Origin: Thermohalobaculum sp.
GTDB lineage: Bacteria > Pseudomonadota > Alphaproteobacteria > Rhodobacterales > Rhodobacteraceae
Assembly: GCA_965263335.1 (NCBI GenBank)
Contig: CBDHHE010000009.1
Location: 28,645 to 92,644, forward strand
DNA: 64,000 nucleotides
Reading direction: 5' to 3'
The notes below the pieces were generated by a model. It was given only the letters and a program-made list of their open reading frames with translations. It made no database searches and was not told the origin of the DNA. The translations under genes were made by a program, and so were the position numbers. Numbering within the stretch: position 1 is the first letter of the stretch; the number at the start of each line of letters is the position of its first letter. Positions 18,895 through 53,568 of the stretch are shown here, in pieces.

Positions 18895-19497
18895 TCAGTC
18901 GTCCCGGATCAGGGCGCCCGGGAGGCTTTCGAAGACGGCGCGGACTGTGTCCAGTTCGACCTCGGCTGTTTTTGCGATCTGGTTCGCATTGTCCACCGAA
19001 ATCGTGCAGGCGGGCTTCTGGCGGCCCTTGGCAATCAGCTTGTATTTGAGCTGGCCGGGCCAGTCCTGTCCTTCGACATGCGGCAGGATCTGATGCGGAT
19101 CGACGACCGCAACGCAGGGCCAGGGCGGCAGGGTGATTTGGGCGGGCCGAATGTGGAGAAACCGGCAATCATCCAGATCAGCCTTGCTGAAATCGCAGTT
19201 GATCGTCAGGTTCTCGTGCGGTTTGTGCCAGTCACCCCAGGTGATCCCCGTGAAACGGCCTTCGAACCGGACGTTTTCGAAACTGGCGCGGCTGAATTCC
19301 TTCTTGGTGAGCTTCTTTTTCTGAATCCATGCACCGCCCACCATGTGCAGCCCGGCAACGACGATGTCCCGAGACTGCGCGCTGACGGTCACCTCGCAAT
19401 CCTCGAGCACCAGATCGGGGCCGAGGTTGTTGAAGTCATCGCCACTCAGGGTGATCGCTTCGCCCACCCGTTTGGTCGCATTGGCTGTGAAGGCCAT
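18895..19497 (-). CDS. Putative immunity protein with pentapeptide-like beta-helix segments
   Basis: 200 aa. ATG is coupled to the upstream stop (TGATG at 19495-19499). Segments LGPDLVLEDC, FSRASFENVRFEGRF, CDFSKADLDDCRF and LPPWPC. Confidence 0.6.
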   Translation of the reverse strand: MAFTANATKRVGEAITLSGDDFNNLGPDLVLEDCEVTVSAQSRDIVVAGLHMVGGAWIQKKKLTKKEFSRASFENVRFEGRFTGITWGDWHKPHENLTINCDFSKADLDDCRFLHIRPAQITLPPWPCVAVVDPHQILPHVEGQDWPGQLKYKLIAKGRQKPACTISVDNANQIAKTAEVELDTVRAVFESLPGALIRDD

Positions 19498-48026: not shown

Positions 48027-48521
48027 ATGCGCGCCATGCCCACTGACGATATCTCTTTGCGCCAACAGATCGCGGATCTGCACCCACGGGTCTGGCGTTA
48101 TTGCTACGTCCTAACCGGGCAGCGGGACACGGCTTGGGATCTGTCTCAATCCGCCTGCGCTCGCGCGCTTGAGCAACTGAGCAAGTTCGATGCAGGGACG
48201 CGGCTTGATCGATGGCTCATGACGCTCACGCATCGGGTGTGGCTGAACCAATGCCGGGCGGAAAACGTCCGCGGGGGCCGACAGCACGTGAGCCTGGATA
48301 GCATTGATGTCGAGGACGCGCAGATGACGGCCGAGATGCACGTTTTCACCGGCCAGGTTCTGCGTGTTGTCATGACGCTCCCCGAGACCCATCGCATTGC
48401 AGTGCTGTTGGTCTATGTTGAAGGCTATTCCTACAATGAGGCGGCGGATATGCTCGGCGTCGCTATCGGGACGATCATGAGTCGCCTGTCCACGGCACGG
48501 GCCCTATCGCCAGCCAGATGA
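48027..48521 (+). CDS. ECF sigma-70 factor (C-terminus probably frameshifted; likely true end 48559)
   Basis: AWDLSQ, DRWLMTL..WLN and YSYNEAADMLGVAIGTIMSRL motifs. Confidence 0.88.
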   Translation: MRAMPTDDISLRQQIADLHPRVWRYCYVLTGQRDTAWDLSQSACARALEQLSKFDAGTRLDRWLMTLTHRVWLNQCRAENVRGGRQHVSLDSIDVEDAQMTAEMHVFTGQVLRVVMTLPETHRIAVLLVYVEGYSYNEAADMLGVAIGTIMSRLSTARALSPAR

Positions 48522-48555: not shown

Positions 48556-49281
48556 ATGACCGGACCCTGGACTGACAACGACCTTACCGCGTTTCTGGAC
48601 GGTGCCCTGTCCCCGAGGGATGCACGTCGTCTGGAAGCGGATCTCGCCAATGATCCGCAGCTTGCCCGTCGTCTTGATGCGCTCACGATAGACACCGATG
48701 CGCTTCGCAAGGATTTTGACCTGTTGCTGCAGGCCGCGTCGCCGAACATTGCGCCGATGGTCAAGGCCGCCCCGCGCACACGGCTTCGGGCCTGGCACGG
48801 CATGGCGCTTGCGGCCTCGCTTGCGGCGGGGATCATCGTTGGATTGCAGTTTACCGCGCCCGATGAAGACTGGCAGGATCTTGCGGCAAACTATCACCTG
48901 CTCTACGGGGCAGAGACGCTGGCCCCGGTGGATGATGACCTTGAACGCATCACGGTCGAACTTGCCAGAGTGGCCCAGAGCCTTGCGCGTGAAATGCCCC
49001 TTGACGCGTTGCAGGCCCCCGCCGGCATCCGACTGAAACGCGCACAGATGCTGGCCTATGAGGGGCGCCCGCTTGCTCAGATCGCCTATGTGACGCCGGC
49101 AGGCGAACCGATCGCGCTTTGCATTATCGCGGACGAGGATGACGCGGTGCTGCGCAGCCTTTCCATGCGCGGCATGGCTGCGGCGACCTGGTCAGCGAAC
49201 GGCTACGGATTTCTTCTGATTGGAACGGATGATCGTGTGCTGATCGATCGCGCTGCCCAAGAGCTTTCCACCCTGCTCTGA
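48556..49281 (+). CDS. Anti-sigma factor (transmembrane)
   Basis: LTAFLDGALS N-terminus, TM LAASLAAGIIVG, and GRPLAQIAY..GEPIALC motif. Confidence 0.85.
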   Translation: MTGPWTDNDLTAFLDGALSPRDARRLEADLANDPQLARRLDALTIDTDALRKDFDLLLQAASPNIAPMVKAAPRTRLRAWHGMALAASLAAGIIVGLQFTAPDEDWQDLAANYHLLYGAETLAPVDDDLERITVELARVAQSLAREMPLDALQAPAGIRLKRAQMLAYEGRPLAQIAYVTPAGEPIALCIIADEDDAVLRSLSMRGMAAATWSANGYGFLLIGTDDRVLIDRAAQELSTLL

Positions 49282-49338
49282 CGTCGAATGCGCCGGTGAG
49301 TGATCACCGACGCATGTCGTTTTGATAGCGGTCATCGC

Positions 49339-50307
49339 TTAGATGAAGTCGAACGTGTCGCCATAGATCAGACCACTCTGACCAAAGGCAAGAAAGTCGA
49401 TCGCCTCGGGCGCATGTGCCGTTTCGCGGTCGACGCTTGTGTCTTCCTCGGCAAAGACGCTGAAGCCGTCTGCGTCAAGGCCAAGTGTCCGCGCCCGAGC
49501 GGGCTCGTTCCCATTCTGGCTGGTCAGGTCAGCGAAGATGATCGGGACCTCGTCAAGATCGATGCCCAGATCGATGCGGCTGGCGGTGTGATCGATGCCA
49601 AAGCCTGCGCTGCCTGCCTCAAAGACAAGACCGTCCACCAAGCCCTGCCCGCTTTCGATCGCCAGAACCCCGATCGTTTCGGCGCCATGGCTGCTCGAAA
49701 ACTGACCGAGCTGTTCTTCTTCAAGAGCCACTTCGACCGCCCCGGCACTGACCGACGCGATGCGGGTGTCGACAAAGTCCGTGTCATTGAAGGTCTGTGT
49801 GCCGGCCAGAACGGTCGGGCGGGATGAAAAGCCCTCAAGCTCGACAGTTTCGTGGCCCGATGCCGAGAGCAGGCTGGTATCGACCGTCTCTGCGGCGATC
49901 ACTGTGCCGTCCGAAAGCACATGCGTGCCTTCTTCGACCACAATGAACGAGACCGTTTCGGGGGCGTGGACCACATCATAGGTCTCGGGCTCTTGAAGGA
50001 AGAGATCGAAACCATCGCTCCGTACATCAGTGACGCGGCTGGTCACGGACTGTAGCCCGTTTGCTGTCGCCACATGTGTGAAGACCACCGGGTTTTCGAA
50101 GTCATGCTGGAAGGTCACCGTGCCGCCGGTGTGATCGACAACCACCGCGCCCACTTCGGCGATGACGTCGGGCGACAGCCCTAGACCGTCCGTACTAAGG
50201 ACATTGCGATCCAGCGCGCCGCTGAACAGCGCCTCCTCGAACTCCTCTTCGTTGGCGCCGTCTTCCGTAAGCGCCGTCTCCAGCGCGGCGCGGACTTCAG
50301 CCTCCAA
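49339..50307 (-). CDS. C-terminal part of a large secreted protein with three H-type-lectin-like repeats
   Basis: Three ~90-aa units, each ending H(A/G)(P/A)E(T/A)(V/I). Ends DTFDFI. No good RBS or ATG; joins the upstream ORF if one G is removed from the G6 run at 50336-50341. Confidence 0.72.
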   Translation of the reverse strand: MEAEVRAALETALTEDGANEEEFEEALFSGALDRNVLSTDGLGLSPDVIAEVGAVVVDHTGGTVTFQHDFENPVVFTHVATANGLQSVTSRVTDVRSDGFDLFLQEPETYDVVHAPETVSFIVVEEGTHVLSDGTVIAAETVDTSLLSASGHETVELEGFSSRPTVLAGTQTFNDTDFVDTRIASVSAGAVEVALEEEQLGQFSSSHGAETIGVLAIESGQGLVDGLVFEAGSAGFGIDHTASRIDLGIDLDEVPIIFADLTSQNGNEPARARTLGLDADGFSVFAEEDTSVDRETAHAPEAIDFLAFGQSGLIYGDTFDFI

Positions 50308-52726
50308 AACGACGCCTCCACTGATCTCGGAACCGCCCCCCGTTCGATGAAAAGCCGACGCCTAGGCCGGCTCCGGCGGCCACCGAAGTGTTGAAGAGAT
50401 CTGGGATTTCGTCGAGCCGGAACTCGGCCGTGGGGTCGGCGAGAAGTTCGGTCGTATTCGGCAAGAACGCAGTCGCGAAGGCGTACGACGCCTCGGCGCC
50501 GATGGTCACGCCGCTGAGGCCGAATTCTCCCAGATCGAGTTCGAGCGCCACGCCATTGAAGTTCTCAAGCCCAACCTCGCGCAGCACGTCGGCGGCGCCG
50601 TTCACGAAAGCGCTGCCGGAGAGCTCGACGCCGCTGAACGCCCGCAACTCGATGCCGTTGCCGAGCCCGGGCACTCGGGCGACTACGGCGCCTTCCGCGA
50701 CCGCGTCGACAATCACCTGGCGGTTGGCGAGATCAGAGTCCAATAGATCGAAAACGAGGCCAACACCCAGCTCGCCGCCGAACACCCCGCCGGTGACCAA
50801 AGCGCCCGCTTCGATGCGCAAACCGGCACTAAACTCGGCGCCCGCTTCCAGCGGCCCTGCTTCGACGTCGACGAGGCTTGTATCGACACCGCCGTCGTCG
50901 CCGTCGTCGCCGCTAACTTCGGACACCTCCGCCGTGCCTGCGTCATCCGGTGCGACTGCGGCAGAGATCCGCGGCGCTTGGGTCCCTTCAACGCCAGGCT
51001 GTGCGGCTCCTGCGGCGTTGCCTTCTGCCGCAGTCGCGCCCCCACCGCCCGAGGACGTGGAGAAGGCGAAAACGCTGGCATCGAACCCATCGTCGATCAA
51101 CGCGTCGAGGTTGGTTTCGAGGCGCGCGCGCTGGTTGGCGGAGAGTGCTGCGCCCAGGCTGTCTTCGAAAAGATCCACCAGCGCGTCCGTGTCCCCGAAG
51201 TCCAGCACCGCGTCGCGCACCGTCTCCAGCAGCGTTGCGCCATCCTCGGTGGCCAGGGCCGCGAGGTCGTCCAGAACCTGTGTCGTGCCGGCCAGCGCCT
51301 GCTCGGTCGCCGCCTGGCCAAGATCGGTCACGTACCCGACCGCGAAGCGCTCAAGCTGGGCTTGCAGGTAGTCTACGATGCCGAGGAAGCCGTCTCCGAT
51401 GAAGGCGGCGAGATCCGACAGGAAGCCCTGAGCCGCCGACAGGCCATCGAGGAACGCGCCCTCGGCACCGTTGGCGATGGATTGAAGGATCGCGCCGGTC
51501 GACGCTGCCACGCCGGCCAACGCCTCTGGCGTAAGCTGCTGCAAGACACCGGCCAACTGCGGCGTGATCAGCTCCCGAGGCAAGTCCAGGACGCGGGCGT
51601 AGCCATCGAGCGTCGCGGATGAGAGGTCGATATCGAGCGTACCGATGTCCTGAAACGCGTTGCCGATTGCCTCGAAATCCACGAAGCGCGCGATGTCCGA
51701 GACGATATCGCCAAAGACCGCACCCTCGCCCGAGATCGCCTCAAGAAAAGGCGTGTCCAGCGCACCTTCCCAACCATTCTCGGCAATGCCGTCGACGAAA
51801 GCATCAAGCTCCGCCCGATCATGGACGACGGCCACAGCTTCCTGGAGCGCGCCGCGGGCTGCGTCGAGCCCCTGACGTGCGACATCCAAGGCGGGGTTTT
51901 CGAGACGGTGGATCCGCTGAACATTTGCGATCTGATTTCCCAAAGCCGTGATCTGCGCATTGGCCGAGGCAAACGCGCCGACGCTGTCGACTGCAGCCTG
52001 AGGCGCGCTTTGGATGGCCTCTGCCGCATCCGAAACGGTTGAACTGATCGCTGCGAGAGCATCGGGTAACGAGACGAAATTTAGACGCGTTACGCCGGAG
52101 CTGCTACCGAAGGAGATCTCGGCGCGCAACGCCGCAACTGCGTCGCCAAGATCGGCGGCGAACGCGCCCGGGTCAGATGGATCGAAGGTGAACTGCCCAA
52201 CCTGGGCATCGATGGCCGACACCGCTTGCGATACCAGGTCTGCAATTGTCAGAACGTTGATCTGCCCAATGTTTCCAAGTTCCTGTCCGACCCTGGAGAG
52301 GGCACCGGAGATGATCCCATCCGGGTCGCCGATCCGCTGGATTGAGATGAGGGCCTGATACGACTGCGCGATCGGTTCAAAGGTCGCGGAAATCAGATCG
52401 AGGCTGTCCGTCGTGACGGCGTCGCGCCTGATCTGGTCAGCAACAGACCGGCTCGCGCGACCGAAATGCTCAACGGCATCGGCCACGCTTCGCGCAAGCG
52501 CGCTGTCGACCCGCCCGACGGTGCCGATGTGATCGGCGATAGAGGTGAAGCCGCGCCCGGCATCTTCGAGCGATCCGAGCACGCCCAGCGTATTGACGCC
52601 AAGCGCATTGGTCAGGTCCTGAATGTCGAGCGCGACTTCGATTACTACGTCGAGTTCGTTACGAACGGTGTCGAACGCCCGATTTACATCGTTTGAAAGT
52701 CCGGAAAAGAAATTGCCGAAAGACAT
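50297..52726 (-). CDS. N-terminal part of a large acidic Ala/Gly-rich secreted protein
   Basis: 809-aa ORF with GGAG RBS: helical N-terminus, Gly/Ala linker and beta-rich region. The abrupt basic tail RFRDQWRRRFGG* is frameshift-like. Confidence 0.75.
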   Translation of the reverse strand: MSFGNFFSGLSNDVNRAFDTVRNELDVVIEVALDIQDLTNALGVNTLGVLGSLEDAGRGFTSIADHIGTVGRVDSALARSVADAVEHFGRASRSVADQIRRDAVTTDSLDLISATFEPIAQSYQALISIQRIGDPDGIISGALSRVGQELGNIGQINVLTIADLVSQAVSAIDAQVGQFTFDPSDPGAFAADLGDAVAALRAEISFGSSSGVTRLNFVSLPDALAAISSTVSDAAEAIQSAPQAAVDSVGAFASANAQITALGNQIANVQRIHRLENPALDVARQGLDAARGALQEAVAVVHDRAELDAFVDGIAENGWEGALDTPFLEAISGEGAVFGDIVSDIARFVDFEAIGNAFQDIGTLDIDLSSATLDGYARVLDLPRELITPQLAGVLQQLTPEALAGVAASTGAILQSIANGAEGAFLDGLSAAQGFLSDLAAFIGDGFLGIVDYLQAQLERFAVGYVTDLGQAATEQALAGTTQVLDDLAALATEDGATLLETVRDAVLDFGDTDALVDLFEDSLGAALSANQRARLETNLDALIDDGFDASVFAFSTSSGGGGATAAEGNAAGAAQPGVEGTQAPRISAAVAPDDAGTAEVSEVSGDDGDDGGVDTSLVDVEAGPLEAGAEFSAGLRIEAGALVTGGVFGGELGVGLVFDLLDSDLANRQVIVDAVAEGAVVARVPGLGNGIELRAFSGVELSGSAFVNGAADVLREVGLENFNGVALELDLGEFGLSGVTIGAEASYAFATAFLPNTTELLADPTAEFRLDEIPDLFNTSVAAGAGLGVGFSSNGGRFRDQWRRRFGG

Positions 52727-53568
52727 AACATTTCTCCATTTGGATTAGTTTGGCATGCAAAGACCCGCCGTCGGCCAAGGGGCCGCCGCTTGTTCAGGTC
52801 AGGGTTAGAGGTTGGGCTTTTGCCGGTCGTCAGGGTGGCTTTGGCCGTTTCATGTGGGTCTCCTTGGTTGGGCGTCGCCCGAACCGTGGGGAGCGCTCAC
52901 ATAAAGGAAAACACGTTTGTCGGGAAATTATTCACCGGCTTGGGGCCAGATAAGATCACATTCGGTCACACGGCTGAGACGCCCTCGTGCGTTGGCCGGG
53001 CCTTTGACGCAGTTCATCCACGGACCGGTCGGGCATTTCCAAAGGAAATGTCCCGAAAGGTTTGCTCTCGACACGGCTCCGGCGGTGGTATCCGCTCCAA
53101 CGTCGCCAGATGGCGCGACCCAGATACTTTGATGCTCGCAGGCTTCGTTGCGTGCGATTGCGCCGGCGGTGGGTGGCTTCTACGGCTTGGCGTTTTTCCT
53201 TGGCGGGATGGCCACGTTCAGTGTTCGCTGGCGGCGGCACAGGGCGCTGGCGTCCGCTACCGGCCAGCCCAGGCCGACAAGCTTCAGAAGGCGTTGCACG
53301 AACCTCACCGTCTGCCTTAGCGGCCTACCAAAGATGCCCGGGGCGCCGCCCGTTCAGGGCAAACCGCCCTTCACTCTTCATCGCCCGACAGGTCCCGGAT
53401 CGCGGCATCGCTCAAGCTCGGTTGCTGGCCACACTTACTGGTCGGGGGCGGGCCTCAGGTCATTTCTGGATCAAACCACAGCGTGTGCGAGCCGCGTCGG
53501 CCCTGTGCTTCATTTCAAACCGACAAACCTTACGGCAAACGTCGCTTTCCCGCAGCTCGAGTGACAAT

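Follow-up and report, generated by a model that had tools for sequence, protein, structure and literature searches.

Adjacent reading frames on one strand may encode two proteins or may be the halves of a single broken gene, and this is the question raised by a locus in Thermohalobaculum sp. (Rhodobacteraceae; assembly GCA_965263335.1). Here the minus strand of a 64,000-nucleotide stretch of contig CBDHHE010000009.1, which was analysed as a whole and which we refer to as the window, carries an open reading frame (ORF) of 809 amino acids (50297..52726) followed by one of 322 amino acids with a TTG start (49339..50307), the two overlapping by 11 nucleotides (nt). Judged by comparison with related sequences, the two ORFs are one gene (49339..52726, minus strand) for a protein of ~1128 amino acids. 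We read the break between them as a real, recent frameshift allele that is segregating in nature, and the intact allele co-exists with it at about 1:1 in the same sample.

The whole gene is 3388 nt long, that is 3n+1, and the additional base is an insertion of +1 in a tract of six G at 50336..50341 (minus strand TCATCGAACGGGGGGCGGTTCC). Removing one G from the tract gives GFSSNGGGSEISGGVVLEAEVRAAL on the minus strand and a stop-free product of 1128 amino acids, with GFSSNGGGSEISGGVVLEAEV at the junction and DTFDFI at the C-terminus. With the G in place, the 809-amino-acid ORF specifies residues 1-797 of the protein and then a 12-residue out-of-frame tail (RFRDQWRRRFGG), and the 322-amino-acid ORF, which has a GGAGG 6 nt ahead of its TTG, holds a lectin module. 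The tract is unremarkable by itself, the window containing 14 runs of six or more G or C. The break falls in a poorly conserved inter-domain linker between the N-terminal ~800 residues and the lectin module, and just past it lies a variable acidic helical linker (residues 798-852; 50170..50334, minus strand) that was delimited by alignments and by AlphaFold2 (AF2).

A word-indexed search of 5.8 billion proteins returned three full-length relatives, a hypothetical protein of 1084 amino acids from Roseivivax halodurans JCM 10272 and two metagenome proteins of 977 and 1003 amino acids, and when an N-terminal profile was run with HMMER against 1.84 billion representatives, a fourth, of 1138 amino acids, was recovered. 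All four relatives (P0002, P0003, P0004 and P0008; 977-1138 amino acids) are single ORFs, 41-44% identical to the fused protein and colinear with it through the junction. On these alignments, it is beyond chance that the two frames, once joined, align colinearly with homologues encoded by single ORFs. The junction linker is deleted in one relative (P0003), and the break thus lies in a variable inter-domain linker. The initial annotation had already proposed one gene split by a one-base insertion, and had named homologues organised as two separate genes as the finding that would speak against this; every full-length relative proved to be a single ORF, and these relatives, together with a metagenome contig described below, uphold the proposal.

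To follow the alleles of the tract we used unitigs assembled from public sequencing runs. Two of these runs (X1 and X2) derive from the source sample of the organism, and five (X3, X4, X5, X6 and X8) are other metagenomes, from at least three studies, with ~94-96% identity. In X1 the graph splits at the tract itself, giving two unitigs, one with six G (G6) and T/T at the linked sites 50344/50348, at a depth of 5.4, and one with five G (G5) and C/G at these sites, at a depth of 5.5. No form combining G5 with T/T was found in X1, even at a reporting threshold of 1%. In run X2, G6 was seen. The five other metagenomes are all one base shorter at the tract, where they read GGAGG within the in-frame sequence FSLDGGGSEISGG, so that in-frame alleles carry either G5 (own sample) or GGAGG (relatives). 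A contig of 5054 bp from X4 (~94.5% identity) covers the whole gene, which is 3411 nt long there (3 x 1137). Its indels relative to the window are the -1 at the tract, a +9, two compensating +1/-1 pairs and a +15, and the extra G is the sole frame-breaking difference. The window allele shows three changes within 13 bases, namely the added G, a replacement of Asp by Asn and one synonymous change, with the two substitutions sitting 3 and 7 bases from the extra G. This allele is the derived one, because the relatives, like the in-frame allele, have C/G.

How the break is best explained depends largely on these linked sites. Were the extra G a homopolymer error of assembly or sequencing, the gene of the organism would be intact, and there are grounds for suspicion: the genome is a 14-contig metagenome-assembled genome with 4.8% contamination, and so probably long-read based, the window and X1 disagree at three fixed sites over 4 kb, meaning that the consensus of the window is imperfect, and the in-frame allele does occur in the same sample. 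We nevertheless hold such an error to be improbable. G6 has a unitig of its own in X1, at the depth given above, and recurs in X2; moreover, G6 occurs strictly with T/T and G5 with C/G, whereas random errors would put both lengths on both haplotypes, and the G5 form with T/T is absent at the 1% threshold. Still less credit, to the point of being highly improbable, goes to the tract as a contingency locus at which slipped-strand mispairing toggles the protein. Two tract lengths at ~1:1 in one sample, and a predicted product of a class that is often phase-variable (surface or secreted glycan binders), are what such phase variation would lead one to expect, yet the tract is only 5-6 G long, one of 14 such runs in the window, and its length is linked to two substitutions, which points to different lineages and not to switching within a clone. 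Five relatives carry the interrupted GGAGG, which is unable to slip, and distant homologues have no G tract here, one of them having lost the region. Neither length variation within one lineage nor a slippery tract kept in relatives was found. Both accounts are disfavoured because random error would not be strictly linked to single-nucleotide polymorphisms (SNPs), and because slippage needs no SNPs and would keep the slippery tract in relatives. The initial annotation had left the choice between an assembly error and a phase switch; with k-mer support for G6 in both X1 and X2, its linkage to SNPs and GGAGG in relatives, we replace both with a segregating frameshift allele.

The split form might also work as two polypeptides, the 322-amino-acid lectin module being translated by coupling and secreted via its own tail while the 809-amino-acid part stays intracellular. 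A Shine-Dalgarno-like arrangement, GGAGG-N6-TTG, overlapping the upstream stop, can be read directly from the sequence; the break, lying in a variable linker, keeps whole domains on both sides, and there are no further disabling mutations. We regard this arrangement as quite improbable all the same, as no homologue has a two-gene organisation, the GGAGG serves as Ser-Gly-Gly codons of the intact frame, and the allele looks so young that missing decay says little. Two ways of restoring the frame during translation were rejected as well. Programmed ribosomal frameshifting is ruled out by the orthologues and near relatives, which are all in frame and of which none has the extra base, and quadruplet decoding of CGGN failed to give the fused protein letter for letter, as 21 in-frame CGG codons would shift the frame.

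Variation in X1 was unevenly placed along the locus. Five variable sites (the indel at 50336, 50344, 50348, 50387 and 50390) fall within 55 bases, 50387/50390 show three haplotypes, and 2.5 kb of sequence 3' of the gene is invariant; 50336-50390 is a local microdiversity hot spot in the inter-domain linker in this run. At full depth X1 mismatches the window at 49323, 51119 and 51937, and the assembled consensus is thus not the dominant sequence of X1. Upstream of the gene, the summed unitig depth in X1 rises to ~36 at 52989-53100 (6-10 nearby), with loose ends at 53003, 53062 and 53099. In this genome the upstream intergenic region has no further copies and the segment is single-copy, so a short conserved stretch at this place is common to other organisms in the sample.

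The C-terminal ~275 residues of the protein are, on structural modelling, three tandem H-type lectin domains (minus strand 49921..50172, 49639..49920 and 49342..49638). The third of these stretches includes the C-terminal tail GLIYGDTFDFI, whose last seven residues (49342-49362) are a putative type I secretion signal. By blastp the internal repeats are alike (E=1.8e-12 for the first and third, E=1.2e-6 for the first and second), and the motif E..D.E..H..E is common to all three. AF2 modelled the module (331 residues, 16-sequence alignment) with a pLDDT of 82.2 and a pTM of 0.78, giving an all-beta core from residue 56. When single repeats were compared with the PDB by Foldseek, all three matched H-type folds, with the Helix pomatia and Helix aspersa agglutinins reaching probabilities of 0.98-0.99 (TMt 0.55-0.61, rmsd 2.5-4.4) and with further matches to coral SLL-2, R-pyocin fibre tips and phage gp53 (overall probability 0.85-0.99, TMt 0.4-0.6); entries 2cgy, 2ce6, 2ccv, 4q56 and 3wmp were matched at probabilities of 0.93-0.99 and TMt of 0.50-0.61. 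A profile of the module against PDB sequences gave chance matches only. In Pfam, six of nine sister modules, which are 30-41% identical to that of the window, pass the gathering score of 24 bits for PF09458 with 25-43 bits (25.3-43.3), and several also touch Gp53-like_C; assignment of the window repeats to PF09458 rests on transitive homology through these sisters.

Known H-type lectins are homotrimers of one-domain chains, with the sugar sites between chains. Each repeat shares the six-stranded beta-sandwich of the Helix pomatia and Helix aspersa agglutinins, coral SLL-2 and the discoidin II C-domain (PF09458), but here three diverged domains, scoring below the Pfam threshold and sharing the motif given above, stand in one chain. 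This single-chain triple probably packs as a pseudo-trimer that mimics the classical homotrimer, as hinted by the pTM of the model and by a Foldseek match of the whole module to the three-lobed C-terminal domain of PCSK9 over ~275 columns. R-type pyocin fibre tips and phage gp53 (PF21882, Gp53-like_C) are of the same fold class and likewise place a glycan-binding tip on a larger carrier; unlike them, the gene has no phage or tailocin genes nearby, and its carrier is a soluble acidic helical protein and not a trimeric fibre.

A module of this kind, ~270 amino acids long, occurs in 18 of 151 genomes of the same family, where it often ends giant ORFs (up to 8744 amino acids) and is sometimes found in tandem. 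In eight of eleven other proteins the lectin triple lies at the extreme C-terminus and is followed by a similar tail, and the RTX-repeat protein P0005 carries the triple as well, N-terminal of the repeats. The genome under study (G000) has two paralogues of the module, at C1:1722973-1723728 and C1:3497601-3498311. These belong to giant ORFs of 1695 and 1894 amino acids that end in the lectin triple with the tails QELF and QDLI; the 1695-amino-acid paralogue has DUF5060, collagen-binding-like and Big_9/cadherin domains in Pfam, and the N-terminus of the 1894-amino-acid one is near-identical. In two genomes of the family (L007 and L011) the H-lectin triple is followed by a domain of ~194 amino acids that starts CFT.GT... 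and has the look of a Hint/intein-type autoprocessing domain.

As far as sequence searches define them, the N-terminal ~800 residues form an orphan family that is restricted to a small number of Rhodobacterales. The HMMER scan found six representatives among the 1.84 billion, and a pattern scan found the family in two species among 185,579 genomes; neither Pfam nor NCBIfam had a match to the fused protein, a profile of the N-terminal domain against PDB sequences gave chance matches only, and no literature on the family was found. Three parts can be distinguished, all on the minus strand: an all-helical acidic orphan domain (residues 1-545; 51092..52726), placed by alignments and by AF2 secondary structure of low confidence (pLDDT 43); a Gly/Ala/Asp-rich linker (residues 546-648; 50783..51091) that is predicted to be disordered and is mostly missing from homologues; and a Gly-rich region (residues 649-797; 50336..50782) that is conserved in the family and for which four long beta strands, forming two hairpins, are predicted with low confidence. 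In the AF2 prediction, likewise of low confidence, helix spans residues 12-545, disorder 546-648 and the four strands 692-794. The most conserved block, at about residues 310-460, contains FLEAISGEGAVFG, VDFEAIG and LITPQ.AGV.QQL. Several predictions of the initial annotation held up here and in the lectin module: the succession of helices, Gly/Ala linker and Gly-rich beta region agrees with the predicted secondary structure (at its low confidence), no N-terminal hydrophobic signal sequence is present, as had been stated, and the three H-type-lectin-like repeats were confirmed by the PF09458 scores of the sisters, by AF2 and by Foldseek, the modelling and fold comparison it had recommended yielding the H-type lectin fold. 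Matches of two homologues to tape-measure proteins in PHROGs (E=1e-4 and 7e-3) were set aside as weak and probably compositional.

One relative is informative about how the protein is built. P0008 (1138 amino acids) keeps the N-terminal part, has two Malectin domains (E=6e-62) in place of the H-lectin triple and ends in STFDFF. This architecture implies that the N-terminal part is a constant unit, that the lectin head is exchangeable and that the short tail is conserved as a feature of its own. A constant part joined to exchangeable glycan-binding parts is also what one might expect if the intact protein were a released, lectin-targeted toxin whose helical or beta-hairpin parts insert into target membranes, as in haemolytic lectins. 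Four long amphipathic Gly-rich strands are predicted at residues 692-794, and the extreme avoidance of Lys resembles that of toxins that need to escape degradation. A membrane-active protein had also been one of the possibilities put forward in the initial annotation. We consider a membrane-damaging toxin rather unlikely, however: there is no segment of transmembrane grade in the protein (best 19-residue hydropathy 1.51) and no conserved uncharged helix pair, confidence in the model is too low to trust the hairpins, and similarity to pore-formers was found neither by sequence nor by fold.

The composition of the protein and its C-terminus point to a possible route of export. The fused protein contains no Lys, no Cys, one Met and one Trp, with a pI of 4.05, and members of its family contain 0-11 Lys per ~1000 residues; the genome median for long ORFs is 2.06% Lys. 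Twenty ORFs of the genome with RTX motifs are acidic and mostly Cys-free or Cys-poor, with a median Lys content of 0.85%, and in most of them the C-terminus consists of Asp and then three or four hydrophobic residues (GDFVFI, SDSDFIF, DDIDIV), a pattern that GDTFDFI fits. The tail is conserved across homologues, down to the STFDFF of the malectin variant. The protein thus combines the features of a type I substrate: it is acidic and Cys-free, lacks a signal peptide and has a candidate uncleaved C-terminal signal. The genome contains three bona fide HlyD-type type I secretion genes, all on contig C1. LapA/MpIBP-type adhesins and the PrsDE-secreted Rap proteins of Rhizobium are, like the gene product, acidic, Cys-free and without a signal peptide, and type I adhesins and RTX proteins share with it ligand-binding domains near the C-terminus and an acidic-then-hydrophobic tail. 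The same lectin triple ends giant cadherin/Big_9 proteins, and in P0005 it precedes RTX repeats. In contrast to type I adhesins, the protein has no RTX nonapeptides, Ig-like extenders or recognisable N-terminal retention module, and its gene has no adjacent ABC-transporter or membrane-fusion-protein genes. Type I substrates need not have RTX repeats or adjacent ABC/membrane-fusion genes.

In this genome a low Lys content is general among the RTX-motif ORFs. This 98-kb contig carries the genome's two longest ORFs that are free of Lys and resemble real genes, one being the gene described here and the other a 723-amino-acid ORF at 19497-21668 (minus strand); homology between the two was rejected (hhalign probability 0.1).

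Next to the 3' end of the gene lie, on the plus strand and convergent with it, a gene for an extracytoplasmic function (ECF) sigma factor (48027..48521) and one for a single-pass anti-sigma-like protein of 241 amino acids (48556..49281). The sigma factor passes the ECF superfamily model, and an orthologue stands beside the 3' end of the large gene in six of six loci. Its 241-amino-acid partner, which is conserved with the neighbour in Roseivivax, has a weak anti-sigma match only. The synteny resembles that of ECF sigma/anti-sigma modules located beside the secreted protein that they control, and it recurs across the six loci. The locus differs from such modules in that a promoter motif common to both genes was looked for and not found, the sensor domain of the anti-sigma factor has no homology to the large protein, and the orientation varies: sigma and anti-sigma genes are convergent with the large gene in the window and in Roseivivax (two loci) and co-directional in the malectin locus, and the other three loci, closely related among themselves, likewise have a co-directional sigma gene (four co-directional loci in all), with no anti-sigma gene called.

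The 5' leader of the gene contains a conserved element of ~49 nt (GTGTTTTCCTTTATGTGAGCGCTCC...GGTTCGGGCGACGCCCAACC; 52866..52914, minus strand), which aligns closely in five of six loci and loosely, by eye, in L019. It is followed in four loci, the window and L014, L016 and L019, by a tiny upstream ORF (uORF) of 6-7 codons. That of the window, MKRPKPP (52830..52853, minus strand), lies behind a strong Shine-Dalgarno sequence, ~100 nt ahead of the real start, and its counterparts read MTLRPL, MPAKPP and MTMQHA, each ending at a stop codon. In two of the peptides Pro-Pro directly precedes the stop, a context known to cause stalling. A deletion in L017 and L018 of ~120 nt between two ATGCC repeats fuses the Shine-Dalgarno sequence and ATG of the uORF to the main ORF. 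Rfam had no match to the leader or to the whole locus, and no sigma-70-like promoter was found for the gene. Two homologue loci (L018 1-7577 and L019 7783-10029) lie beside integrase, resolvase and HNH genes and the 3' end of a tRNA gene, which suggests that the gene and its sigma module travel on integrative elements.

Taken together, we favour, with a probability of about 0.68, a combined explanation in which one gene, present here as a recent, segregating frameshift allele, encodes an orphan N-terminal domain and a lectin triple, and in which the intact protein would be exported by type I secretion, dock on glycans and be under sigma-factor control. Type I secretion, directed by the uncleaved tail GDTFDFI, would carry the protein out of the cell, and the lectin module would then dock it on a glycan-bearing surface, for instance that of an algal cell, a host cell or another bacterium, or the matrix of a biofilm. 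The working part (anchor, adhesin or effector), delivered by the exchangeable lectin, would be the constant N-terminal domain, and expression may be governed by the neighbouring ECF sigma/anti-sigma pair.

Several points weigh against this explanation. The evidence for the two alleles consists of assembled unitigs of public runs. The window's own lectin repeats have no H_lectin match at E<=1 and are below every Pfam threshold, and sugar binding by the module is a prediction. Export through GDTFDFI is the best candidate route by analogy, the fused protein having no GGxGxD RTX motif and the contig of the gene (C9) no type I secretion genes. The AF2 model of the N-terminal 797 residues, built from four sequences, is poor (pLDDT 43), its Foldseek matches to designed or generic helical repeats (rmsd 16-28 A) were discarded as meaningless, and an effector role for this domain is a guess. 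Finally, the suggestion that the ECF sigma/anti-sigma pair controls the gene is drawn from synteny, and a search for a bipartite promoter motif common to the upstream regions of the gene and the sigma factor returned GC-rich noise only.

The frameshift itself is ordinary, and it provides a clean case in which a single environmental population holds both a natural knockout and the intact allele. The protein extends the range of lectin-tipped proteins of the Rhodobacteraceae that probably use type I secretion, and the modelled structure of its module indicates that H-type lectin domains can form a single-chain triple at the very C-terminus of such proteins. Our analysis also delineates an orphan domain, very rare and with exchangeable lectin heads, that is tied to a dedicated ECF sigma factor. 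It is possible, if on balance unlikely, that the N-terminal region is a new extracellular effector or anchor of marine Rhodobacterales, with interchangeable lectin heads that deliver it to glycan-bearing targets, RTX-free export through a short Asp-plus-hydrophobic tail and a dedicated ECF pair that switches it on, and that it perhaps acts on algal hosts or in biofilms on plastic surfaces; this would make the locus a self-contained module to 'sense, then secrete glycan-targeted protein'. If secretion and glycan targeting are as we infer, the locus would represent a compact system by which roseobacters recognise sugar-coated algae, biofilms and plastics.

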